Source of the DNA: an uncultured Ruminococcus sp.
GTDB taxonomy: Bacteria > Bacillota > Clostridia > UBA1212
Assembly (NCBI GenBank): GCA_902792515.1
Contig: CADAZX010000001.1
Span: forward strand, 72,441 to 136,440
DNA length: 64,000 bases
Direction of reading: 5' to 3'
This document shows positions 2,966-24,576 of this stretch, piece after piece (the first letter of the stretch is position 1; the number at the start of each line of letters is the position of its first letter). The translations under genes and the position numbers were made by a program. The notes beneath the pieces were generated by a model that did no database searches, had not been told where the DNA came from, and saw only the letters and a list, made by a program, of their open reading frames with translations.

Positions 2966-3078
2966 CGCGAAGTTACACAACCGTTCTTGTTTGCGCGAAG
3001 TTACGCAACCGTTCTTGTTTGCGCGAAGTCAAACGACCGTTCTTGTTTGCGCGAAGTCAAACGACCGTCTCTATAAAG
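2966..3078. repeat. Tandem 28-bp direct repeat (cgcgaagtyamacraccgttcttgtttg), about 4 copies. The last copy is degenerate and overlaps the stop codon of the 3057..6281 gene.
   Basis: Read directly: unit copies at 2966-2993, 2994-3021, 3022-3049 and 3050-3078, with 2-4 substitutions between copies. Confidence 0.85.
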
Positions 3079-6000
3079 AACCGTCCGGGTGCGTTGTCAG
3101 CCAGCGCGTAGTCCTCCGTGAAGCTTCCGCCGCCTGTCACGAACGTGTCCGGTCCAACCGCGCCCGTTATCGCCGGCACCACGTGAAGCGGCCCGAAAAG
3201 GTTCTTGCGCGTGCACACCAGCGTCACGTTAAAGCCCGTCTTCAGCCACTCCGTAACGTCTGCCTCGTAGGGCTCCCATCCGAGGATCTGCTTCCCGGAG
3301 CCGTCCGGGCCTTCGACCGTCACCAAACTTCCCGCGAAATCCGCGCACCTCAGCACTGCTTTCTCCCCTGTGCGCAGGTCGACGCCGGCGAGCATTTCCG
3401 GCGTTATTTTGTACGTGACCGTGCCCGTATACGAGAGGAGGTTCTGCTCCGCGAGGTCCGCGGGCGTCAGCTTGTCCGGAAGCACCGTCATCTTTTTGTG
3501 ACGCGAGTAGAAGCTTCCGCGGTCGCCCGGCCGCCTTCCGGGGCCTTTTTCGATGAGCTCGGATCTGACTCCGAAATCGCCGACGATATACGCCGCCTCG
3601 ATGTTGGTGGTGCGTCTGAAATGGGTCAGCGCGGTGACGACGTTTTCGCCCACTTTGAGGAGGTCGCGGCTGACGGGAATGGTCTTCAGGCAGTTGTCGG
3701 TCCAGAAGCCGCCGTCGGGAACGAGTTTCTCGCCGTTGACGAAATACGTGATCTTTTCGGGCCTCTCGGCGCAGAGCAGCACGTCGCCCTCGGGAAGGGT
3801 CTCGATCTCAAACGTGTAGTTCAGCGCGATCTGGCCGTAGTCGCTGTCGGCGTACTTTTTCGCGTACCAGGGCTGGAGCATGCCGCCGCCCCTGTGTTCG
3901 ATGCCCACGAAATCGCGCACCGCGCGGTCGAGCTTCAGCACCTCCTGCTCCGGAAAATGCTTCACTGTGCCGTCGGTCGTTATCATGTTCGCGTCGGCAA
4001 AGTCGAGCACCATCGCGTTCTTTTCGCCGAGCTCATAGTCGAATTCGCCCGCGAGCTCCTTAGAAAAGATTACTTCGCGCTTCACGCGCCTTGAAACGCC
4101 GCTCTCCTCCGCGGTCTCCGGCAGCTCGCCGCCGAAGTAGAACACAAAGAAGCGCTCGCCCGCCGGCATAAAGTCTGTCGTGACCGACACCGCGCCGCCG
4201 TTGATCTCAAGCCCGCGCACGTTGTATTTTTTGCCGTCCTCGAGGCACCACTCGACGCATCCGGTGACACCCTCGAATCCGTTTAGAGTCAGTTTCACGT
4301 TTTCCGCTCCGCGCTCCCTGTCGGTGTTCACGACCGCCAGAATGACTATTCCGTCCTTTTCGCGGGCGTCGCGCACCTGGAAGTGAAGTTCGTCGCGTTC
4401 GATATTCTCCGCTGTGAGCGAGACCGAAGCGGCGGGTTTGACGCTTCTCACGACTGCCTCGGGCGTGAACTCGTCGCGCACGCATCCGATTCCGTCAAAC
4501 GCGTTGGAATCCCTCGCGTCGACCATGTAAGGCGCGTCGCCGAGCAGCACGATCCGGCCGCCCGCCTCCGAGAACTCTTTAAGAAGCGCAAGCGTCGTGC
4601 CTCTTACTGTCTTGAGACCGCTGACAACGACCGTCTTGTACTCCATCGAGCCGACCTTCAGGACAGGTCCGTCCTCCCTCTTTTCGACGCGGCCGTGCTT
4701 CGCCATGATCTCCTCTTCGCCGTAGTCGAAGTCGACGTGCGCCGCGCGCATGTAGGCGAAAAGCTTTCTGTAGTGGTCTTCCTGCGCGTTGACGTCCGGG
4801 TCTACCGGCTGTATCCAGCGCGCCCAACCGGCGTAAACGTCCGTCCAGACGCTCTCGATTGGGTTCATTACAAGCACGTCGCACGCCGGCACGCCCTCGG
4901 TCATCAGCACGTTGAACCTCGCGAAGTAGTCCTCCACATATTTATAGTATTTATAATAAGTCGCCTGGTGCAGAATGCTGGCCGGGTAGTCGCGCTTCGC
5001 CTCGCCCTCCATCGTATACCAGGAGAGGTGCGGGCATCTGACGTTGACGCCGTAGAGCGCCTGCCAGTCGCCGACCGCCTTGTGGCCCTTGAAGTTGAAC
5101 TGCCAGCCTGAGCAGCCGTAGAGCTCGGAGAGTATCCACTTTTTGTCGAGCTGCCGCGCCGCCGACTGGATCTGCTTGGCCGCCCAGAAAACGTTCGCGA
5201 ACTCGGACAGGTTGTCGATGCCAGGAACGCCCATGTGCTCGTAAAATCTCATCAGCGAGCCGTTCGGAACGGTCTGGTTGGCAAGGCTGTCCTCGTGGAG
5301 GACGTGGCCCGTAAAGTCGATTCCGTTTTCGACGCACCAGCGGTTGATCGGCTCCGCGAACCTCTCGATGAAGAGGTTGTTGCCGAGGTCGACGTAGTCG
5401 TGCTTGACCGCCCGCGAAGTCGGGAAATCAGGCGCCTTGTAGAAAAACTCCGGCAGCTTTTCCGTGATCGAGTAGCCGTACCTTTTTTCGAACTCGTCGA
5501 AAATGTCGTCCGTGTAGAAAACCGAGCACTTCAGGAAGCCGTTTTCGTCGCGCGTGGCGTTGTCGAGCATGTGTCCTCTGTGCGGTTCGTCGGTGAAAAT
5601 GCCGCGGATCGTCTTCCAGATCTTCCTGCCGGCGTGCTTTTTGTACGCCTCGTGGGTGATCCTGATGAACTCCTCCGTCGCCGCCAGCATCATCGTGTCG
5701 ATGTAGGTCGTCCCGTTGTAACCGCTGCTCGGCCTGTCGTATTCGACAAAAAATTTAAGCAGAACGTGCCTCTGCCCCTCCTGCGCCACGTAAAGCGCCC
5801 GCTCGTTGCTTTTGATCATACGGTAGCGGAGCAGGTTGCCGGTATCTTTCTCGAAAATCGCCTCAAACGTATACAAAAGGTTCTCGGGTTCAGTTCTGTC
5901 GTCCGGCGCCGACTCCTTTACCACAAGCGACTTCATTCTGTACTTCGGGTCGCGCGTGACGATTCCGCCCGCGCATCCGCTCGGCCAGCGGTCCTCGTCG

Positions 6001-6281
6001 TAAAGCCACGGTTCCATCCCGTTTTCGTCGCCGTAGACGGCGACCTTGTTGCAGAGGTCGAACCACTCCTCTCCGAGATACTCGGTAATGAGTCCCGCGC
6101 GGCTGTGCATAAAATACCCGCCGAAGCCCATCTCTTTAAGAACGTCGACCTGCCGCTTCAGTTCCTTCTCCTCGAGTTCGCCGTTCCACGACCAGAAAGG
6201 CTTGCCCCTGAACTCATGACCCGGTGCCGAAAATTCCTTTTCAAGCGCCCCGTAACCTCTGTTTAATATACTGTTATCCAT
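3057..6281 (-). CDS. Large multidomain glycoside-hydrolase-like protein (1074 aa)
   Basis: Long ORF with RBS GGAGGAA. The N-terminal region KPFWSWNGELEE...GYFMHSRAGL...GMEPWLYDEDRWPSG is typical of a TIM-barrel GH-like family and is paralogous to the truncated gene at 1..1768. Family assignment is not secure without a search. Confidence 0.6.
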   Translation of the reverse strand: MDNSILNRGYGALEKEFSAPGHEFRGKPFWSWNGELEEKELKRQVDVLKEMGFGGYFMHSRAGLITEYLGEEWFDLCNKVAVYGDENGMEPWLYDEDRWPSGCAGGIVTRDPKYRMKSLVVKESAPDDRTEPENLLYTFEAIFEKDTGNLLRYRMIKSNERALYVAQEGQRHVLLKFFVEYDRPSSGYNGTTYIDTMMLAATEEFIRITHEAYKKHAGRKIWKTIRGIFTDEPHRGHMLDNATRDENGFLKCSVFYTDDIFDEFEKRYGYSITEKLPEFFYKAPDFPTSRAVKHDYVDLGNNLFIERFAEPINRWCVENGIDFTGHVLHEDSLANQTVPNGSLMRFYEHMGVPGIDNLSEFANVFWAAKQIQSAARQLDKKWILSELYGCSGWQFNFKGHKAVGDWQALYGVNVRCPHLSWYTMEGEAKRDYPASILHQATYYKYYKYVEDYFARFNVLMTEGVPACDVLVMNPIESVWTDVYAGWARWIQPVDPDVNAQEDHYRKLFAYMRAAHVDFDYGEEEIMAKHGRVEKREDGPVLKVGSMEYKTVVVSGLKTVRGTTLALLKEFSEAGGRIVLLGDAPYMVDARDSNAFDGIGCVRDEFTPEAVVRSVKPAASVSLTAENIERDELHFQVRDAREKDGIVILAVVNTDRERGAENVKLTLNGFEGVTGCVEWCLEDGKKYNVRGLEINGGAVSVTTDFMPAGERFFVFYFGGELPETAEESGVSRRVKREVIFSKELAGEFDYELGEKNAMVLDFADANMITTDGTVKHFPEQEVLKLDRAVRDFVGIEHRGGGMLQPWYAKKYADSDYGQIALNYTFEIETLPEGDVLLCAERPEKITYFVNGEKLVPDGGFWTDNCLKTIPVSRDLLKVGENVVTALTHFRRTTNIEAAYIVGDFGVRSELIEKGPGRRPGDRGSFYSRHKKMTVLPDKLTPADLAEQNLLSYTGTVTYKITPEMLAGVDLRTGEKAVLRCADFAGSLVTVEGPDGSGKQILGWEPYEADVTEWLKTGFNVTLVCTRKNLFGPLHVVPAITGAVGPDTFVTGGGSFTEDYALADNAPGRFFIETVV

Positions 6282-6566: not shown

Positions 6567-8249
6567 TCAGAAAGCCTTCTTCTTGAGAACTACGAGAACG
6601 ATTGCCGCCGCCGCGACGATGAAGAGAACCATCGTCATATCGGATGTCTCGGTAGGAGTCTCGGGGGTCGTGTCGTCAGCGAGCTTCGCGAAGTCGCCGC
6701 CGTCGTTGAAGTTGACCAGGAATCTCCAAGCCTCATTGGCCTCGCTTCCGCCAAAGTAGTACGCAATGTACTCTTTGTCGTAGTTGCGGTCTTCAGCCTT
6801 CTTGGTGGAAGGAAGAACGATGTACGAACCTGCCGCGGCATCGTTTTCGACAACTACCACATACTGTCCCGCGGGAGCAGCTTCCTTAAGCTGGAATTTG
6901 AAGCCCTGGTTCTCGCCGTCGTAAGGAACGAGAGTTGCGTTGGTGCCTTCTGCAGAGAATCCCTTCTGGAGCTGGTTGTCACCCTCAACACCGCTGAGAG
7001 TAGCTTCCGCAACGGGAGTTCCCGCTACGGAGTCTGCGTACGTGCCCGCGAACTTGTAAAGCTTAACAATGATGTTCGCGTTCACAGTGCCGGTTCCGGC
7101 AACAGGGTTGCTTGCCCAGAACATGTGTGAAGAGATCGAAGTGAACGGCTTGTTCGCGTTGAAGACTGCGCCGTAATCCGGATAGTTGCCGTCAACGTCA
7201 CAACGTAGCCAAATGCCTTCTACGCCGCCCTGAGAAGCGCTTGCTCTCTCAACGGGCTCTGCGGGCTGCTCTACGGGCGGATCAACGGGAGTCTCGCCGC
7301 CGTCTTTGCCGTTCGGGTTGTGGAACGTGATGGACTTGATGGTGAGCTTGCCGCCGGGCTTAGCGCCGGGGAAGCGGACACCGGTGAGGAGCGTATCGGT
7401 CAAAAGGCTGAATTCGTCGCTGATGATGAACGTTCTCTCGGTCTTGCCGTCCATTGCCGGAGGCGCCCACGTTCCGCCTGTTGGGGAGTAGCCGGGGTTC
7501 TTCTCGGTGTCACGGAGATATACGTTGTTGCCGTGCATCTGGCCTTCGAGCTCGTAAACAACCGTGAACGAGGTGTAGTACTTTGTTTCGACTTCGTCGA
7601 GTTCGATCGAGAAGAAGGGGTCGCCCGCTCCGTCCTGAGTCTCGGCAGTGATCGATCCGTCGTCGTTTTCGGTAACGTCAACGCCGACGGTGTTGTTCGC
7701 ATCGGGAATGAGCTCTACTACAAGAGTCTTCGGAAGGTCGTTAGGCTGAGCCTGTTCTTCCTCCTCGGGTCCTACTACGAGAGTAAATTCGCTCTTAACG
7801 TCCGCTTCAGTGTCGTCGGCATACTTCGCGACGATAGCGACAGCATAAGTGCCGTTGTCGAGAGCGTCGACTCCGAGCATCTCCATGTAGCCGTCGTCCT
7901 TGCCGAAGCCGGCGTGAACGAAATCATCGGCTACCCAGCCTGCATTCGCGAAATTCTCGTTTTTCGCGATCTCGGTTCTGTCTCTGTAAACGTCGGAGCA
8001 CTCTTTCTCGGCGCCGTCAAGCGTCCAGTAGATCTTCTCGAGAGTCGTTCCCTGCTTTGCCATCCATCCGAGGATGAAAAGCTTGTCGCCCTTTTCGATA
8101 TTGACCTTGGCTTTGCCTGCCTCGCCGGCGATGTTCGATGAGTCAAGCGTGTTCGCGTTGATGTACAGCGAATCGAGTCCCGCGAACGAGCTGATGCAAA
8201 GTGCCGCGGTCAGTGCGAGAGCGACGATGATTGCAAATAACTTTTTCAT
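6567..8249 (-). CDS. Secreted cell-surface protein with an N-terminal signal peptide and a C-terminal TSDMT-TM-KKKAF anchor (paralogue family)
   Basis: N-terminus MKKLFAIIVALALTAALC (signal peptide). C-terminus ...PTETSDMTMVLFIVAAAAIVLVVLKKKAF. An internal ILGWMAKQGTTLEKIYWTLDG motif is shared with 8295..9335 and 63166..end. RBS GGAGGAG. Confidence 0.7.
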   Translation of the reverse strand: MKKLFAIIVALALTAALCISSFAGLDSLYINANTLDSSNIAGEAGKAKVNIEKGDKLFILGWMAKQGTTLEKIYWTLDGAEKECSDVYRDRTEIAKNENFANAGWVADDFVHAGFGKDDGYMEMLGVDALDNGTYAVAIVAKYADDTEADVKSEFTLVVGPEEEEQAQPNDLPKTLVVELIPDANNTVGVDVTENDDGSITAETQDGAGDPFFSIELDEVETKYYTSFTVVYELEGQMHGNNVYLRDTEKNPGYSPTGGTWAPPAMDGKTERTFIISDEFSLLTDTLLTGVRFPGAKPGGKLTIKSITFHNPNGKDGGETPVDPPVEQPAEPVERASASQGGVEGIWLRCDVDGNYPDYGAVFNANKPFTSISSHMFWASNPVAGTGTVNANIIVKLYKFAGTYADSVAGTPVAEATLSGVEGDNQLQKGFSAEGTNATLVPYDGENQGFKFQLKEAAPAGQYVVVVENDAAAGSYIVLPSTKKAEDRNYDKEYIAYYFGGSEANEAWRFLVNFNDGGDFAKLADDTTPETPTETSDMTMVLFIVAAAAIVLVVLKKKAF

Positions 8250-8294
8250 AATGGTTTCTCCTCCAAAATATCTAAAAATGTCTCTGTCAACAGT

Positions 8295-9335
8295 TTAGAA
8301 TGCTTTTTTTCTGAGAATTACGAGGACGATGGCAGCCGCCGCAACGATGAAGAGAACCATCGTGGCGTCTCCTGTTACGGGGGTCGGGTCGGTTCCGGGT
8401 TCTGTGCCGGGATCTGTGCCGGGATCGTCACCGGGAACGGTGCCGTTCGGGTTGCCGTTGATCGAGAACTCAAGCGGGAGCTCGACAACGGTGCCGTTGG
8501 TGAGCTTCGCGATAAGTCTCGCTTCTTTTCCGCCCTCAAAAACGGTCGGGACCCAGATGCGGAAACGCGTAGCGTACTGTCCGCCCGCTTTGATAACGTC
8601 CTGTCCTGTCTCGAGCTTGAAATCGCCGTACGTCTCGACGCCGTCGAGTTTGTATCCGAGCTTGTCGATCTCGCCCTTGAAGCCTACCCAGCCGTAGAAG
8701 CCGATCTTGCTGAGGTTTTCAGCCGCAGCGTCGATGACGCCGTCCGGATAGTTTTCGTTGAACCAGTTTTGTGCCATCGAGGAAACGACCGGCGTGTCGT
8801 TGAAGTGGATCTCGTCGAACGAGTATCCCTTCATCTCCGCCAGCGGATCGGCTACTTCGCCGCCTGCTACGATGGTGATATCGGCCTCGTAGAACTCGGC
8901 CTCCGCTCCGTTGTTGTCAACGAAAATGAACGTAAAAACGTATTCGCCCGCATCAAGTCCGGTAAGCGGAACCTCAATGTTAACGCCCGGGGTCGCGTTG
9001 AGCGCTCTGTCATATGCCGAGAATTGGCCGAAAACGTCGTCTCTCGAGCCCTGCTCCACGGCGATGTCTTTGGCGTCGCCCGCGTCAATGTAGTACTTGA
9101 AGCTCTTGGGTCCGAACTCGGAAAGGAGCCATCCGCGAATGGATACCGACTCGGTGCCGAGACCGACTTCGAACGAAGTCACCGCGAGCCTCGAGGGGTT
9201 GCCGTCGGGAATGCTGACCTTTCCGCCCTGGTCGATATAGCAGTTGAACTGGCCGACGTCACCGTCAGCGTGTACCGCGATAGCTCCCATGCAGATGATC
9301 GCAACCGCGAGCATTATCGAAAGTATCTTTTTCAT
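8295..9335 (-). CDS. Secreted cell-surface protein with a C-terminal PVTGDAT-TM-RKKAF anchor (paralogue family)
   Basis: Signal peptide MKKILSIMLAVAIICMGAIAVHA. An internal GFYGWVGFKGEIDKLGYKLDG...YGDFK motif is shared with 63166..end. A PGTDPGTEPGTDPTP linker precedes a C-terminal tail nearly identical to that of 6567..8249. Confidence 0.7.
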   Translation of the reverse strand: MKKILSIMLAVAIICMGAIAVHADGDVGQFNCYIDQGGKVSIPDGNPSRLAVTSFEVGLGTESVSIRGWLLSEFGPKSFKYYIDAGDAKDIAVEQGSRDDVFGQFSAYDRALNATPGVNIEVPLTGLDAGEYVFTFIFVDNNGAEAEFYEADITIVAGGEVADPLAEMKGYSFDEIHFNDTPVVSSMAQNWFNENYPDGVIDAAAENLSKIGFYGWVGFKGEIDKLGYKLDGVETYGDFKLETGQDVIKAGGQYATRFRIWVPTVFEGGKEARLIAKLTNGTVVELPLEFSINGNPNGTVPGDDPGTDPGTEPGTDPTPVTGDATMVLFIVAAAAIVLVILRKKAF

Positions 9336-9612: not shown

Positions 9613-10920
9613 ATGTCTGACTGTTGTTTTCTCGCCGGCGCGGCGAAAGCTGATATCACCCCGGAAGTCGGTACTCTTCTTTACGGTTACAGGCCGGACT
9701 CTGTAAGCACGTCCGTTCACGACCCGCTTGAGGCGACAGCCGTCATGTTCCGCCAGGGCGACTCGTCGGCCTTGTTCATTTCCCTATCCGTGGGAGATCT
9801 CGGCACCGCCCTTGCGGACGAATTGCGCGATATCGCGGGAAAAGCCGCCGGAACCGCGTCCGGAAACGTTGTCATTGCCGCCACTCACACCCACTCCGCC
9901 CCGAACGTCTCGGGAATGGAAGGCTGGGGCGACATCGACAGACCTTACGTCGACAGCATCCTTATCCCCGCCGTCAAAAAATGTTCCGCCGCGGCGCTCG
10001 CTTCGCTCGCGCCCGCCGAACTTGCCTTTTCGACTGTCCGCTCCGAAGTCGGCATCAACCGGCGGCAACAGTTCCCGGACGGCTTCATCGGCCTTGGCCA
10101 GAACCCCTGGGGCTGCTTCGACCCGACGCTCACACTCATCGCGATCAGGCGCAAAACCGACAAAAAAGGCATCGTCAACATGCTCCACTACGGCTGCCAC
10201 GGCACCGCGGCCGGCGACAACCGCGAGATAACGCGCGACTGGCCGGGGGTGATGACCGACAGGCTTGAGAAAGAAACAGGTGTTTTGACCGGCTTCTGGA
10301 ACGGAGCGATCGGCGACGTTGGCCCGAGGCTCAGCAACGGCCGGACCACCGGAAACATAAGCTACGTCGAAGAACTCGGCGCGATCGCGGGCGACGACGC
10401 CGTAAGAGCTTACAAGGCGCTCGGAGAATACTCCGACGGCCTCCTGAAAGTCATTCCGTGCCTCATTTCCCTTCCCCGCAAGCCGCTCCCGCCGTACGAA
10501 GACGCCCGTGCCGCTCTCGACTCGTACAAAGAGCCCGAAAAGCTGATCAACATAAGCCGCCTCACGTACGCATATTATAAAGCGGTCTGCGACGAGTACG
10601 CTGCCGGCTGCCCGGATTACGAGCGCGAATTCACTTATCCCGCCGCGGTCGTCGCCATAGGCGAAGCGGTGTTCGTCCCGTTCCCGTTCGAGATCTTTTC
10701 GGAGATATCGATGCGCCTTCGCGCGTATTCCCCGTTCCCGCACACGCTCTGCCTCTCGAACGCCAACGGCTACAACGCCTATCTGCCCTCACAGGACCAG
10801 TTCGTGCGCGGAGGCTACGAGGTCGCGTGCTTCAGGTTCAGCGACGCCCACCCGCTGGCGGACAACTCAGACCAGCTGCTTATAGACAGGAATCTGGAAA
10901 TCATTTCGAAAATGTTTTAA
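9613..10920 (+). CDS. Neutral/alkaline ceramidase-like hydrolase
   Basis: N-terminus GAAKADITPEVG..LYGY...VHDPLEATAV resembles the neutral ceramidase N-terminal domain. RBS GGGAGG. Confidence 0.5.
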   Translation: MSDCCFLAGAAKADITPEVGTLLYGYRPDSVSTSVHDPLEATAVMFRQGDSSALFISLSVGDLGTALADELRDIAGKAAGTASGNVVIAATHTHSAPNVSGMEGWGDIDRPYVDSILIPAVKKCSAAALASLAPAELAFSTVRSEVGINRRQQFPDGFIGLGQNPWGCFDPTLTLIAIRRKTDKKGIVNMLHYGCHGTAAGDNREITRDWPGVMTDRLEKETGVLTGFWNGAIGDVGPRLSNGRTTGNISYVEELGAIAGDDAVRAYKALGEYSDGLLKVIPCLISLPRKPLPPYEDARAALDSYKEPEKLINISRLTYAYYKAVCDEYAAGCPDYEREFTYPAAVVAIGEAVFVPFPFEIFSEISMRLRAYSPFPHTLCLSNANGYNAYLPSQDQFVRGGYEVACFRFSDAHPLADNSDQLLIDRNLEIISKMF

Positions 10921-10972
10921 AACCAAAACATCATTTCAGCGTTAACTTTGTTCATACCTTTAGGAGGAAAAC

Positions 10973-12145
10973 ATGTACAGAATAGGTCAGGAAGAAATCG
11001 ACGCCGTCGCGAGAGCGATAATGAGCCGGCAGTTTTTCAAGATCAACGCCGCCGGGCAGGAAGTTTACAACTTTGAGGAGGAGTGGAAAAAGCTCACCGG
11101 CTCCGGATATATGATAACGATGACGTCCGGTTTTGCGGCGCTCTCGTCCGCCCTTATCGGTCTCGGCATCGGCCCGGGCGACGAGGTAATCGTTCCCGCT
11201 TACACATACATCGCCTCCGCGCTCGCGGTAACATCCGTCGGCGCAATTCCTGTGATTGCTGACGTCGACGACACGCTGACGCTCGACATGGACGACGTCG
11301 AACGCAAGCTCTCGTCCCACACAAAAGCCGTCATGCCGGTCTACATTCAGGGCTTCCCCGCCGACCTCGACAGGCTCACCGCCCTCGCGAAAAAACACGG
11401 CTTCGCGATCGTTGAGGACGCCTGCCAGGCCGACGGAGGAATGTACAAGGGCCGCTATCTCGGCACGATCGGCGACGCCGGCGCCTACTCGTTCAACTAC
11501 TTCAAGGTCATCACCTCGGGCGAAGGCGGCGCTCTCGTCACCAACAAGCGCGAGGTCTACGAGCGGGCTCTCATCTACCACGACGCAAGCGCCGTCGCGT
11601 TTTTCGGCGACCAGTTAAGCGGCATCTCGCAGCCCCTTTTCGGCGGCACCGAGTTCAGAATTTCCGACATCACCGGCGCGATCCTCCGCGAGCAGCTCAA
11701 GAAAATGCCCGCCATTCTGGCCGATCTGAGGCGCAACCGCGACGCGCTCTCCGAGCTCGTGTGCGAAAACGGTCCCTTCACGCAGGCACCCTCCCACGAC
11801 ATCGAAGGCGACTGCGGCACCACGCTCGCTCTCCGCTTTGAGACGGCCGAAGAGTGCCGCGCGGTCCAGGCCCGCTGCCTCGAAAAAGGCCTCTGGCTGA
11901 CCGTCCCGATTGACACCGGCAAGCACATCTACACGAACTGGACCCAGATCATGGAAAAGCGCGGCGCCCTGCACCCCGCCATGGACCCGTTCCTCATGAA
12001 AGAAAACCAAGGTCTTCAGATGAACTACACCATGGACATGTGCCCGCGGACGCTCGACCTCCTCTCCAGAACCGTCTACGTCGGCATAAGCCCCGACTGG
12101 ACTCCCGCCGACATCGAGTCCACCGCAGCGATTCTCAAAGGCTGA
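10973..12145 (+). CDS. DegT/DnrJ/EryC1/StrS-family PLP-dependent (sugar) aminotransferase
   Basis: GDEVIVPAYTYIASA, AYSFNYFKVITSGEGGALVTN and the DegT-family lysine region. RBS AGGAGG. Confidence 0.8.
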   Translation: MYRIGQEEIDAVARAIMSRQFFKINAAGQEVYNFEEEWKKLTGSGYMITMTSGFAALSSALIGLGIGPGDEVIVPAYTYIASALAVTSVGAIPVIADVDDTLTLDMDDVERKLSSHTKAVMPVYIQGFPADLDRLTALAKKHGFAIVEDACQADGGMYKGRYLGTIGDAGAYSFNYFKVITSGEGGALVTNKREVYERALIYHDASAVAFFGDQLSGISQPLFGGTEFRISDITGAILREQLKKMPAILADLRRNRDALSELVCENGPFTQAPSHDIEGDCGTTLALRFETAEECRAVQARCLEKGLWLTVPIDTGKHIYTNWTQIMEKRGALHPAMDPFLMKENQGLQMNYTMDMCPRTLDLLSRTVYVGISPDWTPADIESTAAILKG

Positions 12146-12162
12146 AATCCCCTATAATTAGT

Positions 12163-12207
12163 AAAAAAGTGCGGGCGGAGCCACCGGCTCCGCCCGCACT
12201 TTTTTAC
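12163..12207. terminator. Bidirectional rho-independent terminator between the convergent genes 10973..12145 and 12251..13390
   Basis: aaaaaaGTGCGGGCGGAGCC-accg-GCTCCGCCCGCACtttttt: a perfect 15-bp stem flanked by an A-run and a T-run. Confidence 0.8.
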
Positions 12208-12250
12208 TGTACGATTTTCCCTTTTTAAAGAAGCATTTTTAACCGATACT

Positions 12251-13390
12251 TTAAGGAAGCATCTTTCCGAATACTCTGTCGAGCACCGCGCCGATCTGGC
12301 CCGCATCCGGGTCGACCGGATTTGCCGTCGTGCAGATATCCTCAAGCGCCGCCTGAATGATTCTGCTTCTGTGCTCGGTGTAGTTCGGCAGGTTCACGCC
12401 GGCCTGGAGAAGCGACGACGGAATCTGAAGCTCGTTGATTAGCTTGTTGATCTCGCGGACAAGATACTGAACGGAGAGTCTCGTTCCCGCCGCGGGCAGC
12501 CCTATTATTCTCGCGATCTCCGCGTACCTTTTCGCCGTGGGCGACTTGTCAGCGCCGAACGGCACGTTTAGAGCCGAGTTGAACGCGATCACGTGGGGCA
12601 GCGTTATCGCGTTTGCCTCGCCGTGAGGAATGTGGAACGCCGCGCCGACTGCGTGTGAGATCGAGTGGCAGATGCCGAGCCCCGCCTTCGTGAACGCCAG
12701 TCCCGCCAGGTACGAAGCCATCATCATATTTTCGCGGGCTGCATCGTCGTCACCGTTTTTGAACGCCTCGGGCAGCCACTCGAACGCGAGCTTGAGCGCC
12801 TTTTCGGCATACGCATCTGTAATCGGGTTCGCGCCCTTCGCGACGTACGCCTCGAACGCGTGTGTAATGACGTCCATTCCCGTGAAAGCGGTGACCTTGG
12901 GCGGCACCGTCTTCGTGAGCTTGTAGTCGAGGATCGCGAGGTCCGGGATCATCCTGTCGTCTGCGAGCGGAATCTTCCTGCCCGCGTCCTCGTCCCTGAT
13001 TACCGTGTAGTTCGTAACCTCCGAGCCCGTTCCGCTTGTCGTCGGAATCGCCACGAATTCCGGGTGAACGTTCATGCCGTCCAGCACCAGAATGACCGCC
13101 TTGGCCGTGTCGATCGCGCTTCCGCCTCCGAGCGCCACAATTACCTCCGCTCCCTTGTCCGTAACGAACTTCAGGCAGTCGGTCACGAGCGTCAGCGTCG
13201 GATCCGGCATAACCTTGTCGTAAACGCTCACGTTGCACGTCCTTAGAAGGTTCACGATCCTGTCGCAGATCCCGTTTTCCTTCATGACCGCGTCGGTAAT
13301 AACGGTCACGTTTTTCTTGCAGTACCTGCCGAGCGCGTCAGTCGCGCCCGCTCCGAATATTAAGTTTGAGCTGATTTGAAATTCCGTCAT
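12251..13390 (-). CDS. Iron-containing (group III) alcohol dehydrogenase, likely lactaldehyde/propanol oxidoreductase (FucO/PduQ-like)
   Basis: GGGSAIDTAKAV, the metal-binding HxxxH region and the Fe-ADH fold. It sits next to the DeoR regulator at the edge of the microcompartment locus. Confidence 0.8.
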   Translation of the reverse strand: MTEFQISSNLIFGAGATDALGRYCKKNVTVITDAVMKENGICDRIVNLLRTCNVSVYDKVMPDPTLTLVTDCLKFVTDKGAEVIVALGGGSAIDTAKAVILVLDGMNVHPEFVAIPTTSGTGSEVTNYTVIRDEDAGRKIPLADDRMIPDLAILDYKLTKTVPPKVTAFTGMDVITHAFEAYVAKGANPITDAYAEKALKLAFEWLPEAFKNGDDDAARENMMMASYLAGLAFTKAGLGICHSISHAVGAAFHIPHGEANAITLPHVIAFNSALNVPFGADKSPTAKRYAEIARIIGLPAAGTRLSVQYLVREINKLINELQIPSSLLQAGVNLPNYTEHRSRIIQAALEDICTTANPVDPDAGQIGAVLDRVFGKMLP

Positions 13391-13453
13391 AAAAAGCTCC
13401 GAAACTCTCTAAAATGTCGTTTTGTCTCCGCCGCGGCCCCTGCGCTTTTCCGC

Positions 13454-14227
13454 TCAGGCCTCCTGCAGCGGGTAGAGAAGCCCGATCTGCCTCTCCGCAA
13501 AAAACTCCGTCCACTCGATGCCCGGGTTCCTGTCCGTGACAACTATGTCCACGTCCTCGACCTTGCAGATTTCCACCAGCGACACCCGGTTGAACTTCGT
13601 ACTGTCGATCGCGAGAATTTTCGTCCTCGCCGCCCCGATTATCGCCTTTTTGATCTCCGCGTCCTCGTCGTTCGAGTCCGTCAGACCGTTGCGCATGTCG
13701 ATTCCCTTGCACGAAAATATCGCGTAGTCAACGTGGAACGACTTTATCGCCTCGACCGCCCGCGCCCCGACGAACGCGTAGCCGCCCTCCTTGAGCATGC
13801 CCCCTGTCGCGAAAACCCTCCAAAACGGCTTGTCGCACAGCTCGCAAACGATCTCGGACGAATTCGTGATGACCGTCAGGTTCTTCCTGACCTTGAGCGC
13901 CTTGATCACGAAAAGCGCCGTCGAGCTGCCGTCGAGCATCACGTTCGAGCTCTCGGGAATGATATCCCCGGTCACGTTCGCTATCGCCTGCTTGAGTTCC
14001 ACGTTCGACAGCTTTCTGACCGAATACGGCAGGTCGACGTCCGAGCTCTCCGCCAAAACCGCGCCGCCGTAGATTTTCCTCGCGACGCCCTCGTTTTCAA
14101 GCTTGAGAAGGTCTCTCCTGACGGTCTCCTCCGTAACGTCAAAATGCGTCGCAAGGTCGCTGACTATTACCTTTTTCTCTTTCTGAAGCAAGTCCTTAAT
14201 GTACTGCTTCCTCTCGATTGCCAGCAT
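13454..14227 (-). CDS. DeoR/GlpR-family transcriptional regulator
   Basis: N-terminal HTH (RKQYIKDLLQKEKKVIVSDLATHFDVTEETVRRDL) plus a C-terminal DeoR sugar-binding domain. Confidence 0.9.
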   Translation of the reverse strand: MLAIERKQYIKDLLQKEKKVIVSDLATHFDVTEETVRRDLLKLENEGVARKIYGGAVLAESSDVDLPYSVRKLSNVELKQAIANVTGDIIPESSNVMLDGSSTALFVIKALKVRKNLTVITNSSEIVCELCDKPFWRVFATGGMLKEGGYAFVGARAVEAIKSFHVDYAIFSCKGIDMRNGLTDSNDEDAEIKKAIIGAARTKILAIDSTKFNRVSLVEICKVEDVDIVVTDRNPGIEWTEFFAERQIGLLYPLQEA

Positions 14228-14266
14228 CTCTGAAACGCGCCTGCTCTTTCTTCTGTAAAATCCGAT

Positions 14267-14391
14267 GTGTCTCCGCTTGGTCTCCGGTTTAGCTGCCGCA
14301 CTTACCTTAATTCAACGACGCCGCAGCTTTATGTTGGCGGCATGAACGATTCCGCGAAGCGGTCAAGTGAAGGACGCAACTTAAAGTGCGG
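14267..14391. repeat. Intergenic modular repeat, copy A (block X 14267-14295 plus hairpin block Y 14320-14391)
   Basis: Block X is near-identical to 25857-25887. Block Y is near-identical to 25941-26012 and to the reverse complement of 47030-47107. Y has a long imperfect stem enclosing ccgc-gaa-gcgg. Confidence 0.8.
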
Positions 14392-14619
14392 CTGATAATT
14401 TTAGTTGTGTCTACAGCCGGAAATCTGCTGTCCCGAAAATCTGCGCTCTGGAAACTGCAAAGTCCGGAGCTATTTTTGCGTGCGGTCGTCCGAAGCTGTA
14501 CGAAGGTACTGCGAGCGGCGACCTCGCGCAAAGCAGTTTGCCGGGCAATCGCCATAGGCCCCTTATTTTTATATTACAATTCGGCAAACTGCGTAAAGAG
14601 CCCGGAATCTGCAGTTTCC

Positions 14620-15180
14620 TTAGACTATGGTTTCCCAGAGCTTCTTGTCCGGGCGAGGAATGATCGCGCTGTCGAGGCACATGCCTTCCTCCGCGACCGT
14701 CGCTATCGCCTTTTCCACCGCCGCCGTAACCGCCGCCACGTCGCCGGTAAAGAGTACGTACGACTTTCCGGCCATACCGTTCGCGAGCCTCAGCTCAACG
14801 AGCCGGACCTCCGCGGTTTTCGCCGCCACATCAGCCGCGACGATTGCGCCGGCTACCGAAAAAGTCTCAACGATTCCGAGCGCCTCGACCTCTCCGAACT
14901 CCGCGGCACCGAACATTGCCGAGAAGATCGACTCGTGCGGGTTGCCGAGCACGAAGCTGTCCACGAGCATTTCCGGGAAATTCGTTTTCGCCGCTTCGAT
15001 CGCGGCCTTCACGCTTCCGAGCCTTCCCGAGACGAGAATCACGTACTTTCCGGGGCAAACCGGGTGCGCGTCAAGCACCTCGACCTCGGCCGCCTTGATA
15101 AGGATATCGGCCGCTTTGAGACCCGTTGAAATCGTTCTGTATTCGACTAAGCCAATTGCACTGCTCATACCGGTTTTCAC
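14620..15180 (-). CDS. pduT: Tandem-domain BMC-T shell protein, PduT-like
   Basis: Two Pfam00936-type BMC domains. EMLVDSFVLGNPH, GIVETFSVAG and IPRPD motifs, and a Cys in the first domain (HPVCPGKY), match PduT. Confidence 0.8.
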   Translation of the reverse strand: MKTGMSSAIGLVEYRTISTGLKAADILIKAAEVEVLDAHPVCPGKYVILVSGRLGSVKAAIEAAKTNFPEMLVDSFVLGNPHESIFSAMFGAAEFGEVEALGIVETFSVAGAIVAADVAAKTAEVRLVELRLANGMAGKSYVLFTGDVAAVTAAVEKAIATVAEEGMCLDSAIIPRPDKKLWETIV

Positions 15181-15224
15181 CTTTCGTGTATTGCAAACAA
15201 ATCAAACCTCCGCCTTGCCGCTGT

Positions 15225-16562
15225 TTACTGACGGCGCGCGGTAATAACTATCTCTTTATCAGTTACGCTCTCGACTGTTCCGTCGATCGGAGAGTGGAGC
15301 GCGACGCCGAGGCTGGTTGCGGGGGTTGCCGCGATCAGCTGGTTTTTCGTCACCTCATCGCCCGCTTTAACGGAAGGAACGCACGGTACGCCGATGTGCT
15401 GCGAGAGCTTCAGGCGCAGGCGCGTGTATTTCGTTCCTGTCTCGGTGAGGGGCGCGGGAATGTCGTACCTGGAAAGTCCGAGCCTCGCGGTAAGCCTCTC
15501 CTTAGAGAGCATTCTGTGCGGTCTCGTCGCGGAAACGGGCTTCAGCTCCGCCTGTCCGGCCATCGCCACGCCGTGCTTTCTGAGACCTGCCTTGTACTCG
15601 TTGATGAGCGTTTTCGGCGAGAGGCCCTGAGGGCAGGCGTACATCTCGCATACGCCGCAGCCGCAGCAGTAAAGCGTCCCGAGGAACGGTTTCACGTTGT
15701 CCGATCTGAGGCTGACGCCGGCGGTCATAAAGTCGGCCGGTGATATCGGCTCGCCGAGAAGGTGGCGCGGGCAGAGATCCGAACACATGTGGCAGTTGCA
15801 GCAGACGGCTTTCGCCCTTCTGAACTGGAGCTTGATGTTCGGTCTGTGGTGCGTTACCACGTAGGAGTTGTCCGGGAGCAGAATGATGCTGCTCGTCGTC
15901 TTCGTCACAACTCCGTCGGGTCCGGTGAGCGTGCCCATCATCGGTCCGCCGCAGAGGTAGACCGGATTTTCGATCGTCGCGCCGCCGGCTGCCTCAACGA
16001 GCTCCGCGAAAGTAACTCCGAGCGGAACCTTGAGCGTGACGGGGTTCCTGACCTCGCCGCAAACGGTCACGAACTTTTCGGTGACAGGCGTGTCCGCGTG
16101 GATCGCGTTATATATGTTGAGCATCGTCTCGACGTTGTAAACAACGCACCCCACCGCGATCGGAATGCTTCCGGGCGGCACGACTCTGCCTGTTGTCTCG
16201 TAAATCGTCACAACCTCGTCGCCTGCCGGGTAGATCTCGGGCAGAAGGCCGATCTTGATGTGGCGGAACGACGAAAGATTCGCCGTGATCGCCTCCACAG
16301 CGCGTCCGTACGACTGCTTGATTGCGATAATGACATTCGAAACTTCAAGCGCATCTGCGACGTCCTCGAGCGCGGTCATGATCTCGTAAGCGTACTTTTC
16401 CATGACCTGGCGGTGCAGCTTGAGAAGAGGCTCGCACTCGGCGCAGTTAAGAATAACCGTGTCGGCAGACTTGTTGAGTTTGGCGTGCGAAGGGAATCCC
16501 GCTCCGCCGCAGCCGACGATGCCGTTGTTCCGCAATATTTCGATAAGCCTTGACAGTTCCAT
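15225..16562 (-). CDS. pduS: RnfC/NuoF-like Fe-S flavoprotein, PduS-like (cobalamin reductase / electron-transfer protein of microcompartments)
   Basis: GCGGAGFP NADH-binding motif, two 4Fe-4S Cys clusters (CCNCHMCSDLCP; CCGCGVCEMYACP), ~445 aa. Confidence 0.75.
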   Translation of the reverse strand: MELSRLIEILRNNGIVGCGGAGFPSHAKLNKSADTVILNCAECEPLLKLHRQVMEKYAYEIMTALEDVADALEVSNVIIAIKQSYGRAVEAITANLSSFRHIKIGLLPEIYPAGDEVVTIYETTGRVVPPGSIPIAVGCVVYNVETMLNIYNAIHADTPVTEKFVTVCGEVRNPVTLKVPLGVTFAELVEAAGGATIENPVYLCGGPMMGTLTGPDGVVTKTTSSIILLPDNSYVVTHHRPNIKLQFRRAKAVCCNCHMCSDLCPRHLLGEPISPADFMTAGVSLRSDNVKPFLGTLYCCGCGVCEMYACPQGLSPKTLINEYKAGLRKHGVAMAGQAELKPVSATRPHRMLSKERLTARLGLSRYDIPAPLTETGTKYTRLRLKLSQHIGVPCVPSVKAGDEVTKNQLIAATPATSLGVALHSPIDGTVESVTDKEIVITARRQ

Positions 16563-16881
16563 AAATCAATGTCTCTTTCCACCGTGATGCAAAGGCCGTC
16601 CCGCCCTTCCGGTTTTTCACCTTCAAATAGGCGAAAATCGCACGCGCAGCCTCTGCGGTAAAAGTTATTCGTTCGCGCCGCCTCCGCCTTAAGTCTTACC
16701 GTATTTCCGGGAAATATCCCGCGAAGGCAAAACCGCATCGCTCCACTAAGTGGCAGAGCTTTCCGCGGCGCGTTGTTATCCTGTTCAGCCCGTGCGGAAA
16801 GCCTTCCGCAACAGGATCAAAGGTTCCGTTTGCGGCCGCCCCGCTTGTTTTTAAAAGGCGGGGCGGCCTTCAGCGGACCTT

Positions 16882-17145
16882 TTACTCGAGTCCTATGCTG
16901 TCGTCGACGATACCCACAATCGCGGCGTCGATGGGACAGTTGACAAGACCGCAGCCGATTCTGGCCGCGCTTCCTTCGGCGACAAGCACGATTTCGCCTA
17001 TGCCGGCGCCGACGTTGTCGATGGCAACAATTCGCTTTTTGTCGGCCATGCTCTCCATGGGCTCGATGATCATGAACTTATTGCCTATAAGATTTTCGTT
17101 TTTTCTCGTGGCAACGACGCTGCCAACCACTCTTCCTACCAGCAT
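16882..17145 (-). CDS. pduN: BMC vertex (pentamer) protein, EutN/PduN/CcmL family
   Basis: 87 aa. MLVGRVVGSVVAT...KFMIIEP is typical of Pfam03319. Confidence 0.9.
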   Translation of the reverse strand: MLVGRVVGSVVATRKNENLIGNKFMIIEPMESMADKKRIVAIDNVGAGIGEIVLVAEGSAARIGCGLVNCPIDAAIVGIVDDSIGLE

Positions 17146-17197
17146 AAAACCACCCGCTTTATCTGCTTTGCTTGATTAATCTTATTAACCCTTTTCT

Positions 17198-17833
17198 TTA
17201 CTTGACGATCATACCGATGTCGCCGGTCTTGATCTGCGAAGCGTTCGCCTCGTCGGTGTCGATGTGCATCTCGAGCGAGAACGAAGGGTCGACGCGAATC
17301 GCGACGTTGTTGAAAATCGTTCCTCTGTCGTTGTTGAACTTCACAGAAACGACGTCTCCGTCCTTGACTCCCGCCATTTCAGCGTCGTGAGGCGTCATAT
17401 GAATGTGACGCGCCGCGACGATGCAGCCCTCGTCGAGTTGCACCATTCCGCAAGGTCCGACAAGGTTGATCGGAGCGCTTCCGGCAATGTGACCCGAAAG
17501 TCTGACCGGCGCCGGAACGCCGAGCGTGCGGGCATCCGTAAGCGATACTTCAACCTGGGTCTTGCTTCTGCAAGGTCCGAGGATCCTCACGTTCGCTATC
17601 GGGCGAAGTTTGAGGCCGACGATCATAACCTGCTCGTTGCAGGCGTACTGTCCGCCCATGAGGTCCTTCTTCTTGGTCAGATGGTAGCCCTTGCCGAAGA
17701 GTTTCTCAACGTCTTCCTGCGTCAGATGGATGTGTCTCGCGGACACGCCCACGGGCACCTGAAACCCGGTTTCGGACTGCTTTTGGATCACCTCAAGCAC
17801 AGCTCTTGTGATTTCTTCTATCGACTGATTCAT
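17198..17833 (-). CDS. pduL: Phosphate propanoyltransferase PduL
   Basis: Duplicated PduL/EutD-type domains (ARHIHLT...; AARHIHMTPHDA), ~211 aa. Confidence 0.9.
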   Translation of the reverse strand: MNQSIEEITRAVLEVIQKQSETGFQVPVGVSARHIHLTQEDVEKLFGKGYHLTKKKDLMGGQYACNEQVMIVGLKLRPIANVRILGPCRSKTQVEVSLTDARTLGVPAPVRLSGHIAGSAPINLVGPCGMVQLDEGCIVAARHIHMTPHDAEMAGVKDGDVVSVKFNNDRGTIFNNVAIRVDPSFSLEMHIDTDEANASQIKTGDIGMIVK

Positions 17834-18074
17834 TTTCTTCCGCCTTTATTTCTTCCGTTCTTTCCGCCCGGGCGCCTTTCCTTCCTTTAAGAAGGCGGTA
17901 CGCTTTTTTGCAAGCGCTCCGGCGCCCGCGGCATAAAAACTCAACGTTTCCCGGGCAATACTTCAAAGCGCGATACGTCGATTTGATACGTCAATTCGAT
18001 AAGTCAACGCAATGCGTCAACGCGATACCGCAATGATATCCCGCACCGTCCGGGAATTATAAATACGGGGATAA

Positions 18075-18353
18075 TTACTTCAGTACGGGAAGAATTCTCT
18101 CGACGTCGTTGTGAGGTCTGGGGATCACGTGGGTGGCTACGAGTTCGCCGAGCTTGGCAGCGTTTGCGCCGCCGGCTTCAACAGCGGATTTAACGGCGCC
18201 GACGTCGCCTCTTACCATAACGGTAACGAGTCCGGAACCGATCTTCTCGGTGCCGACAAGTTCAACGTTAGCAGCTTTGAGCATTGCATCGGCCGCTTCG
18301 ATCGCAGCTGTAAGTCCTCTTGTTTCAACCATTCCTAAAGCCTGTTGTACCAT
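18075..18353 (-). CDS. BMC-H shell protein (PduA/PduJ-like). The start was probably miscalled in the ORF track, which gives an upstream Lys-rich extension to 18494.
   Basis: [30 protein letters not shown]...IPRPH. A strong RBS AAGGAGG lies immediately upstream of the internal ATG at 18351-18353. Confidence 0.85.
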
Positions 18354-18498
18354 TTTCTTTTCCTCCTTAATTGTTTCAACATTTCCGCTTCCCGCGGATT
18401 CAGTTTTGATTTCTTTTACATTCGGAGCCGCCGGCTTCTTTACGTCAGCCTTCGGCTTTCCGGTGTTTGCCGGTGTTTTCTTAGTTTCTGCCATAATG

Positions 18499-18819
18499 TC
18501 ACACCTTCTTGAGTCTGCTGGCGCTTATAGCAACCATTCTGGCGGTCTCCTCGTGGGGGTTCGCGATCACGGCGTGCGCGCAGGGTTTGACAAGGCTTCG
18601 CGCCAGCGCGGCTTCCACAGCTTCGGTAACGGCCGAGACCGTTCCCTCTATTACGATTGTGACAAGCCAGCCGCCGAGTCTGCGTTCCCACGTGACGAAC
18701 CTGACGTCTGCGGTTTTGCACATTATGTCAAGCGCGTCGATCGCGGCCGTAACGCCTCTGACCTCGATAAATCCCAATGACTCCATTTTCTGCCGTTCCT
18801 CCCTGAGAAACTTTTTCAA
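18499..18819 (-). CDS. BMC-domain shell protein (106 aa)
   Basis: [30 protein letters not shown]...[20 protein letters not shown] is a single BMC domain. Confidence 0.8.
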
Positions 18820-18950
18820 GTTTTCGAGCTTCCGCCCTTTTCAAAATCCGACCGTAACGTAACGCGACGGTTCCGTCCTCTGACGTCTCGTGAGGCGCCG
18901 TTTTAACGTTCTTTACGTCAAGAACACTAAATCAGCGTTTTCCGATTATT

Positions 18951-19229
18951 TTATTTCGCCTGGGGAAGGATCTTCTCCACGTCGTTGTGCGGTCTCGGAA
19001 TAACATGAACCGCTATGAGCTCGCCGAGTTTGCCTGCGTTTGCGGCGCCGACTTCGGTAGCCGCCTTAACAGCCGCGACGTCGCCTCTTACCATAACGGT
19101 AACGAGTCCGGAGCCGATCTTCTCGGTGCCGATGAGGGTGACCTCTGCCGCTTTAACCATTGCGTCGGCCGCTTCGATAGCCGCTGTAAGACCTCTGGTC
19201 TCAACCATGCCCAATGCTTCCTGTACCAT
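18951..19229 (-). CDS. BMC-H shell protein (PduA/PduJ-like), paralogue of 18075..18353
   Basis: [30 protein letters not shown]...IPRPH. RBS GGAGG lies before the ATG at 19227-19229. The track ORF extends upstream, probably spuriously. Confidence 0.85.
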
Positions 19230-19377
19230 AACATTTACCTCCATTAGAATTTCAAGTTGTTTCACTCTGCCGGGTCTTGCGCTCCGTCTGCGTTCCGCGT
19301 CGCTTTTCGCACCGGAAACGTCATTTTCGCGCATGCCCGAAAATAATTACATTGCCGTTCCGCCGCCCGCCTCAAGG

Positions 19378-19692
19378 TCAGCTCTTGTCGAGTCCACTCA
19401 GCTTCAGCATCTTTTCGGTTCCGGGTTCCGGGTTCGCTATTATATAAGACGTAACCACTCCCGAGACCTTTTCGGCCGCCTCTACTGCCGCCTCGACCGC
19501 AGCCTGAACCGCGGCGACGTCCCCCCGGAATTTCACCAAAACGATAAGAGGCACCTTCAGCTTTTCCGGGTGAGCCGGTTTGTTTCTGTCGAAAACCTCC
19601 ATATGTACGTTGGCCGCCTTGCATCCGGCGTCTCCCGCAACGAACGCCGCGACCAGTCCGTATACTTCCACAAATCCAACTGCTTCTGCCAT
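19378..19692 (-). CDS. BMC-domain shell protein (104 aa)
   Basis: AVGFVEVYGLVAAFVAGDAGCKAANV...FRGDVAAVQAAVEAA, then IIANPEP. Confidence 0.75.
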   Translation of the reverse strand: MAEAVGFVEVYGLVAAFVAGDAGCKAANVHMEVFDRNKPAHPEKLKVPLIVLVKFRGDVAAVQAAVEAAVEAAEKVSGVVTSYIIANPEPGTEKMLKLSGLDKS

Positions 19693-19927
19693 TTTCGTAA
19701 AATTCTCCGGGTTTTAATCTTTTCCTCCCCGCGGCAGTCCGCCGTTTTTAGGAAGGACGTTATTTTCTGCAGCGGGCATTCTCGAAAATCCTCAAACCGG
19801 GAATCCGGGAACGCTCTGCCGCTCATTCAAAGTCAGCCGGTCTTTTTAAGGGAATGCGCTCTTACGCTTGACATCAAATATTCGCCGCTTGCGTAAAGAG
19901 CATTAAATCTCTGCATTTCCGTGCCGG

Positions 19928-21148: not shown

Positions 21149-21162
21149 TTGTTTTTCCTCCC

Positions 21163-23084: not shown

Positions 23085-23209
23085 AACACTTTCCGTTTCT
23101 TTTTGTTTCTTTTTTCCGGGTCTCCCGTACGCCGGCTTTTCGAAAAAGCCGCTTCGGGAATATCCCGGTCTGTTTTTAATAAATTCTCATTTAGATTTTA
23201 AGGCGTCGC

Positions 23210-24022: not shown

Positions 24023-24119
24023 TGAAAAAGCCTCCTGTAAAAAAGTATGTTTATCTGTGGTATTTTTTGCCGGCCCCGCGGCCGTTTGTTTTCGTATTTC
24101 CCGGAAATAATATTGAATA

Positions 24120-24554: not shown

Positions 24555-24576
24555 GACGGCCGTCCGCCTTTCCGCG

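Follow-up and report, generated by a model that had tools for sequence, protein, structure and literature searches.

The sortase SrtB of Clostridioides difficile recognises the motif (S/P)PXTG and cuts it between T and G. The native sequences PVPPKTGDS and SDSPKTGDN, which include downstream residues, were cleaved by this enzyme at least twice as well, and the sortase substrates of C. difficile have been defined by a signal peptide, a motif, a hydrophobic stretch and basic residues (PMC4155245). The class D sortase of Bacillus anthracis prefers LPNTA and is not redundant with the LPXTG-specific SrtA (PMC4498605), and scaffoldins of Ruminococcus are anchored by a sortase (PMC11557425). Together these reports provide precedents for a PxTG-D motif, for its Ala variant and for sortase anchoring in the bacterial family studied here. 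We analysed a window of 64,000 nucleotides from an uncultured Ruminococcus sp. (assembly GCA_902792515.1, contig CADAZX010000001.1, positions 72,441 to 136,440), in which three genes, P1, P2 and P3, encode secreted proteins with C-terminal tails of a common layout. Judged from their sequences, these tails are probably sortase-type (LPXTG-class) cell-wall sorting signals, in variants specific to a lineage of rumen Oscillospiraceae.

The three open reading frames lie on the minus strand, P1 at 6567..8249 (560 amino acids, aa), P2 at 8295..9335 (346 aa) and P3 at 63166..64000, where it runs off the window end (63166..>64000) and is represented by its C-terminal 277 aa. The first-pass annotation had placed three secreted proteins with tripartite tails at these positions, which proved correct, and had exchanged the tails of P1 and P2: TETSDMT belongs to P1 and PVTGDAT to P2. 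P1 ends in ...TPTETSDMT-MVLFIVAAAAIVLVVL-KKKAF. Its motif T535-S536-D537, in TPTETSD (6639..6647), has Ser for Gly and lacks Pro two residues before Thr (T-2). The helix MTMVLFIVAAAAIVLVVL (6585..6638) and KKKAF (6570..6584) follow, together spanning 6570..6638, and the stop codon is TGA (6567..6569). The TETSDMT tail was also found in a protein of another species (P0040) and in the orthologues at two related loci, L073 and L074. P2 ends in ...TPVTGDAT-MVLFIVAAAAIVLVIL-RKKAF. Its motif T-P-V-T-G-D (aa 318-323, 8367..8384) is PxTG followed by the invariant Asp, and both T321 and D323 were invariant in an alignment of 20 sequences. It is followed by the helix ATMVLFIVAAAAIVLVIL (8313..8366) and RKKAF (8298..8312), spanning 8298..8366, and by a TAA stop codon (8295..8297). 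P3 ends in ...PQPTTGDAT-VAMFAVIVVLAMSAAFVFI-RRKSY. Here the motif Q-P-T-T-G-D (63247..63264) is xPxTG followed by Asp, with a strain variant QPPTGD (P0003), and it precedes the helix ATVAMFAVIVVLAMSAAFVFI (63184..63246) and RRKSY (63169..63183), spanning 63169..63246, and a TGA stop codon (63166..63168).

All three tails thus consist of T-[G/S]-D, two residues, a hydrophobic helix of 18 to 21 residues and [KR]3-x-[F/Y], with 29 residues from Thr to the C-terminus in P3 and 26 in P1 and P2. They fitted an LPXTG-type layout (motif 17-45 residues from the end, then a hydrophobic segment and a run of 2 or more basic residues), with the basic clusters KKK, RKK and RRK. In a six-frame scan, no further real gene of the window had a hydrophobic stretch and a basic cluster at its end.

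An exhaustive profile search over 1.84 billion representatives recovered 408 relatives, the best 150 of which were used to count motifs and tail classes. A helix and a basic tail stood at the end of 83 of these 150, and in ~79 of the 83 the helix was immediately preceded by x-P-x-T-[G/A/S]-D. The family consensus was x-P-Q-T-G-D. VPQTG, PPQTG and QPQTG were the commonest motifs (PPQTG in 8 of ~79 tails), NVQTG, NTQTG and NAQTG were also present, and position 1 was mostly V, Q, P, N or T. The Thr and Asp of T-x-D were invariant, while the linkers preceding them were hypervariable and could not be aligned. The tail recurs far beyond chance, in ~80 of the best 150 representatives and at 66 loci, so that the proposal of a conserved tripartite sorting-type signal, as opposed to a chance hydrophobic end, held up. 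Word-indexed protein searches returned only 2, 2 and 7 matches, their candidate list being saturated by low-complexity words.

Two classes were distinguished by tail length and helix sequence. Type A, carried by P3, comprised 51 of the best 150 representatives, with the consensus PQTGDxxVAMFAVIAVLAMGAAVVFxKKRxF and 26 residues after D. Type B, carried by P1 and P2, comprised 17, with the consensus PxT[GAS]D[AM][ST]MIIFVVAAAAIALVVLKKKAF and 23 residues after D. The residue after Thr was Gly in 48/51 type-A tails; in type B it was Gly in 7, Ala in 7 and Ser in 3 of 17. Pro at T-2 was present in 37/51 type-A and 10/17 type-B tails, and a final Phe in 42/51 and 17/17, respectively. Type A had Q at T-1 in 34/51 and Asn at position 1 in 12/51. 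Both classes occur side by side in one genome.

A scan with the type-A alignment, taking one genome per species, yielded 66 loci in ~12 genomes, with about ten or more tail loci in each of several genomes. Every genomic match was a rumen metagenome-assembled genome of Clostridia/Oscillospiraceae, in line with the lineage restriction that had been proposed. The scanned genomes included Mageeibacillus sp. UBA1212 (DBXM01), which with its 98% match is evidently the species of the window and is assigned to Oscillospiraceae by NCBI. Other carriers were UBA1255 (DBVV01), uncultured Ruminococcus RUG bins and several RGIG and Tb.RUG bins of 'Clostridia bacterium'. Tails are also present in the genomes JAGCTF01, JAFWQX01, JAEFAM01, JAGADO01, JAFZSK01, CACZOW01 and CADBOE01. 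Type-B tails were confirmed at at least 3 loci in the metagenome scan, and the genes of the window were also found on rumen metagenome contigs.

We compared the tails with curated sorting-domain models, for which the cut-offs are 15.9 bits (LPXTG_anchor, TIGR01167), 23.5 (Rumino_NPXTG, NF033846), 18.15 (the sortase-B target model, TIGR03063) and 23 (PEF-CTERM). P3 passed LPXTG_anchor with 16.8 bits for the whole fragment and 21.0 for the tail alone, the match covering fragment residues 247-275 and starting at the Pro of the motif. The type-A consensus reached 23.4 bits with this model and 22.2 with Rumino_NPXTG, just under the cut-off of the latter. Rumino_NPXTG gave 17.9 bits for the P3 tail and 12.4 for the whole fragment, both below threshold, and no match to P1 or P2. 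The best and sole match of the P2 tail was LPXTG_anchor, at 13.7 bits. The NVQTGD variant of some relatives passed TIGR03063 (20.8 bits), and this model did not match P1, P2 or P3. The highest score for a model of exosortase/archaeosortase type was 16.5 bits (PEF-CTERM), below its cut-off. PEP-CTERM and GlyGly-CTERM domains were rejected because no match to the tails was listed, and Firmicu-CTERM (TIGR04145) because no tail was listed even at E up to 10, bearing in mind that HMMER filters can drop very weak matches. Literature searches on PQTGD-type motifs and on Firmicu-CTERM yielded nothing relevant. One type-A homologue (P0004, ...VPKTGDAT...) already bears the NCBI name 'LPXTG cell wall anchor domain-containing protein'.

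With respect to the pentapeptide L-P-x-T-G, P2 (TPVTG) and P3 (QPTTG) keep PxTG with Leu replaced by Thr or Gln, and P1 has T-E-T-S-D in its place. The statement of the first-pass annotation that the motif is not LPXTG was not supported for P3, which passes LPXTG_anchor, nor for the consensus x-P-Q-T-G-D, which is of LPXTG class without Leu; the description as non-canonical was fair for P1 and P2. A distinct sorting system, which the motif had been taken to imply, was not supported either, given the LPXTG_anchor match of P3 and the C. difficile SrtB substrates PPKTGD and SPKTGD (PMC4155245). For P3, the tail fits a sorting domain that is already defined and whose enzyme is known; P1 and P2 stay below every threshold. 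Most likely, the P3 tail is a variant to which the LPXTG model already extends, and the P1 and P2 tails are a more divergent sub-variant for which there is no model.

Helices of LPXTG signals are normally poorly conserved. The type-A helix showed 85% amino-acid identity across 69 tails from ~12 genomes, including both paralogues and different species, and 53% of the codons for its identical residues differed. This identity in spite of codon differences indicates that the helix sequence is under purifying selection, and the codon differences exclude recent gene conversion or copying as the family-wide cause of conservation. The length of the tail is also fixed (26 or 23 residues after D), and the terminal Phe or Tyr is conserved. 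These features hint that more than the pentapeptide is recognised.

A local exchange was nonetheless detected between the adjacent tails of P1 and P2. At L073/L074, a locus of a related strain with the same gene order, the orthologue of P2 shares 94% DNA identity with P2, yet has AETSDMT where P2 of the window has PVTGDAT. The swapped stretch GAGACATCCGATATGACG... (ETSDMT) is identical to the DNA of the P1 tail, which points to a short gene-conversion tract between the two tails (window 6567..6690 and 8295..8420; L073:7150-7277 and L073:8860-8986). Both forms are found on P2 orthologues, so TGD and TSD can replace each other on one protein in nature, whether or not T-2 is Pro. L073 and L074 also hold a third tail gene, encoding 394 aa with PAETGDAT, that has no counterpart in the window.

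As a separate observation, the stop codon was TGA in 64/64 tail genes counted at loci L007-L072, usually in the context TTC-TGA-T. Among other genes of at least 200 aa at the same loci, 208/358 (58%) ended in TGA. No conserved DNA was seen after the stop codons of the tail genes at these loci.

If the tails are sortase signals, the protein would be retained in the membrane after Sec export by its hydrophobic helix and its [KR]3-x-F end. A membrane sortase would then cleave x-P-x-T-[G/A/S]-D on the C-terminal side of its invariant Thr and link this Thr to the stem peptide of peptidoglycan, in Clostridia probably to meso-diaminopimelate. A sortase, its cut and the attachment to the wall are what we infer from the tails. 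The proteins themselves would be modular surface proteins that combine immunoglobulin (Ig)-like GW beta-sandwich modules with variable domains. On the best reading of the motifs, the closest kin of the tails would be the (S/P)PXTG-D signals of C. difficile SrtB, Rumino_NPXTG and the class D LPNTA signals. As with SrtA and the class D sortase of B. anthracis, types A and B may each have a sortase of their own, the two differing in specificity.

Several observations weigh against signals of this kind. Leu occupied position 1 in 1 of the ~79 tails, and Pro at T-2 was absent in ~30% of them, including P1 (TETSD). Neither the P1 tail nor the type-B consensus matched any curated sorting-domain model, and the type-B proteins carry the NCBI label 'hypothetical protein'. 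In vitro, SrtB of C. difficile did not cut NVQTG (PMC4155245). The conservation of the helix, with its fixed length and conserved terminal Phe, goes beyond what is expected of LPXTG signals. Finally, no sortase was recognised by a TLxTC-type motif in the 64-kb window and 0.85 Mb of related loci, and none appeared in the additional Pfam-annotated flanks, the sequence examined being a small share of each genome. Housekeeping or general sortases are usually not linked to the genes of their substrates. For this reason, and because of the small genome share, the missing sortase is weak negative evidence. Clustering of 510 neighbouring genes revealed no gene family that recurs beside the tail genes.

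Some of these points would suit a dedicated system other than a sortase, in which a lineage-specific membrane enzyme reads T-[GAS]-D, the helix and KKRAF in the way of exosortases, archaeosortases or rhombosortases. Such an enzyme would agree with purifying selection on the helix without recent copying (85% identity, 53% codon differences), with the fixed 26 or 23 residues after D and the last Phe of 17/17 type-B and 42/51 type-A tails, with the dispensable Pro and absent Leu, with the type-B consensus lacking a curated match, and with the absence of a sortase gene from the ~0.9 Mb examined. We consider it quite unlikely, because type-A tails pass LPXTG_anchor and NVQTGD variants pass the sortase-B target model, and because motif, spacing and basic end have exactly the sortase layout. 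Moreover, no candidate enzyme recurs beside the genes, no match to PEP-CTERM or GlyGly-CTERM is listed, and PEF-CTERM scores 16.5 against 23. A related possibility is that both classes are complete recognition domains for dedicated enzymes, be they a pair of specialised sortases or an enzyme other than a sortase, with recognition of the helix in the membrane as important as that of the pentapeptide. The domains would be PQTGD with a near-invariant 21-residue helix and KKRAF in type A, and T-[G/A/S]-D with an 18-residue helix and KKKAF in type B. This seems improbable to us.

That the tails are plain, uncleaved membrane anchors, with T-x-D serving as a helix cap and the helix pairing with a membrane partner or with copies of itself, is distinctly improbable. 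The T-E-T-S-D of P1, without Pro and Gly, would fit this, as would the absence of a sortase gene from the window and related loci. Membrane anchoring is also common in the lineage, in that neighbouring genes at many loci end in a helix and KKKKK without a motif. Those anchors look different, however, with variable helices and no T-x-D, whereas the T and D of the tails are invariant just outside the helix in ~80 proteins with unalignable linkers, and the tails resemble LPXTG-class models. A split fate, in which type A (P3) would be a true sortase substrate and type B (P1 and P2) a decayed form that serves as a membrane anchor only, is likewise unlikely. The relaxed type-B motif (G 7, A 7 and S 3 of 17 after Thr; Pro at T-2 in 10/17), its lack of a hidden Markov model match and its helix, shorter by three residues, speak for decay, but type B keeps T, D, a fixed length and the terminal Phe (17/17) across many species, which is not the pattern of decay. 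Signals of LPNTA type, with Ala after Thr, are moreover authentic class D substrates (PMC4498605). Sortase-type signals in lineage-specific variants thus remain our preferred explanation of both classes.

P1, P2 and P3 all start with MKK, after which come a hydrophobic core and a site of AxA type; these signal peptides were judged by inspection. In P1 the signal peptide covers aa 1-23, beginning MKKLFAIIVALALTAALCISSFA and followed by G. A divergent GW Ig-like domain (aa 25-163) was detected by iterated profile (E 1.7e-5); the rest of the protein consists of two more unannotated domains and then the type-B tail, the latter located by iterated profile. No Pfam or NCBIfam match to P1 was found in a library search. 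P2 has a signal peptide of aa 1-23, beginning MKKILSIMLAVAIICMGAIAVHA and followed by D, and two GW Ig-like domains, which the iterated profile placed at aa 60-149 and 160-300; a Pro/Gly/Thr/Asp linker and the type-B tail complete it. The part of P3 within the window comprises part of a middle domain, a GW Ig-like domain (63301..63729, minus strand, iterated profile) and the type-A tail. Its full length is 504 aa, as seen on a metagenome contig that also carries the neighbouring gene (L003:8281-9795). In full-length numbering its GW domains lie at aa 32-154 and 318-460 (iterated profile), and its signal peptide, judged on this form, begins MKKLLALVLSVAMILSLVMVSNVSA and is followed by A.

P2 and P3 are homologous across ~200 C-terminal residues (32% identity, E 9e-19), the middle domain of P1 is weakly similar to P3 (24% identity, E 1e-4), and BLAST similarity between P1 and P2 is confined to the tail (21/24 residues). 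From these comparisons and from the GW domain that iterated profiles placed in P1, P2 and P3, the three proteins are mosaics of common modules. Searches of Pfam and of PDB sequences gave no match to the GW domain. AlphaFold2 modelled the GW domain of P2 (aa 158-305) from a 6-row alignment as a beta sandwich, with a predicted local distance difference test score (pLDDT) of 84, whereas a single-sequence run on P2 reached a pLDDT of 35. The modelled domain matched Ig-like/E-set domains at fold level only.

Relatives carry N-terminal discoidin, LamG-like and CBM4_9 domains, which agrees with the earlier description of modular, diversifying proteins. Glycan binding, also suggested at that stage, is plausible from these domains and from the surrounding glycoside hydrolase genes. 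Some relatives end in dockerin repeats in place of the tail. Giant proteins with dockerin-like repeats at their ends (P0007, P0020, P0048 and P0077; 1300 to 2800 aa) contain as many as 12 copies of the GW domain, and the largest family member, P0066 (5042 aa), has no dockerin at its end. The dockerin-bearing members tie the GW family to cellulosome-type surface assemblies.

Directly downstream of P1, the minus-strand gene at 3057..6281 encodes a 1074-aa protein with no Pfam family above threshold. Its sole match was a faint one to GH106 alpha-L-rhamnosidase (E 0.015), and it may be a divergent glycoside hydrolase. The window contains two glycyl-radical enzyme loci, at about 10900..28600 and 57600..62960. 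The first comprises a PFL-like gene (26043..28571) and its activase, bacterial microcompartment shell proteins, PduV/EutP, an aldolase, an aldehyde dehydrogenase, PTAC and EutN; the second comprises a PFL-like gene (60825..62960) and an activase. Genes of the GH106, GH43, GH39 and WbsX/GH99-like types surround both loci. The region looks like one for the utilisation of deoxy-sugar (fucose/rhamnose-type) glycans with a microcompartment.

At other loci, the neighbours of tail genes often end in ...FPV[VI]P or ...SN[KT][PG], a variable helix and KKKKK, and many of them form a pair with a gene for a TGD tail (for example L012:10277-11653, L018:2346-3722, L042:437-2113, L010:218-1615 and L025:1932-2954). 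These KKKKK tails without a motif look like plain membrane anchors. A further pair of genes lies outside the window, at 7 to 10 kb from its start (L076:15896-16897 and L076:17042-18106). They are tandem paralogues of 333 and 354 aa with signal peptides and no Pfam match, and their anchor, ...VVWPYFVAGG, a helix and KKRRARASGEAPAE, differs from the T-x-D tail.

The carriers of the tails are abundant uncultured degraders of rumen fibre and glycans. None of the current sorting-domain models picks up type-B tails, and a dedicated model would flag wall-anchored surface proteins automatically. The unannotated GW domain in front of the tail has a wide distribution, with 408 representatives. The family would also be a natural experiment in sortase specificity, in which Leu is dispensable, Pro optional and Gly, Ala and Ser interchangeable, and Thr, the next Asp, the helix and the terminal Phe are fixed. 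Sortases are usually seen as reading mainly the pentapeptide, a view that would be extended if the helix is conserved because the enzyme recognises it. If both classes were instead domains for dedicated enzymes, they would form a new sorting-domain family, confined to one rumen Oscillospiraceae lineage whose surface is decorated with dozens of glycan-binding and cellulosome-related proteins.

Among described systems, PEP-CTERM, GlyGly-CTERM and PGF/PEF-CTERM resemble these tails in having a short signature, a helix and, at the extreme C-terminus, a basic cluster, in being present in multiple copies per genome and in the conservation of the whole domain. Their signature motifs are absent here, however, and the host is a Clostridium of Gram-positive type. 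The class D LPNTA(S) signals share Ala after the scissile Thr, as in the T-A-D of type B (PMC4498605), but the tails have no Leu-Pro-Asn, have Asp after Ala and show no evident link to sporulation. The coexistence of a class D sortase and SrtA in B. anthracis may nevertheless serve as a model for types A and B in one genome. Rumino_NPXTG is likewise an LPXTG variant of Ruminococcus-type Clostridia with a first residue other than Leu, although Asn at position 1 is a minority form here (12/51 type-A tails). LPXTG signals proper (TIGR01167, PF00746) have the same Sec signal peptide, tripartite layout and P-x-T-G followed by an acidic residue; the tails differ from them in that Leu is nearly never present, Pro is optional, the Gly of type B is often Ala or Ser, the helix and KKRAF end are nearly invariant and the length is fixed. 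The substrates of C. difficile SrtB have in common with the tails a clostridial PxTG without Leu, followed by Asp (PPKTGD and SPKTGD compared with PQTGD and PVTGD), and PPQTG and NVQTG variants occur within the family described here. Position 1 departs from (S/P)PXTG, being T in P2 and Q in P3, and P1 is without PxTG. Unlike those substrates, the tails are present in multiple copies (at least 10 in several genomes), have a conserved helix and belong to uncultured rumen Oscillospiraceae.

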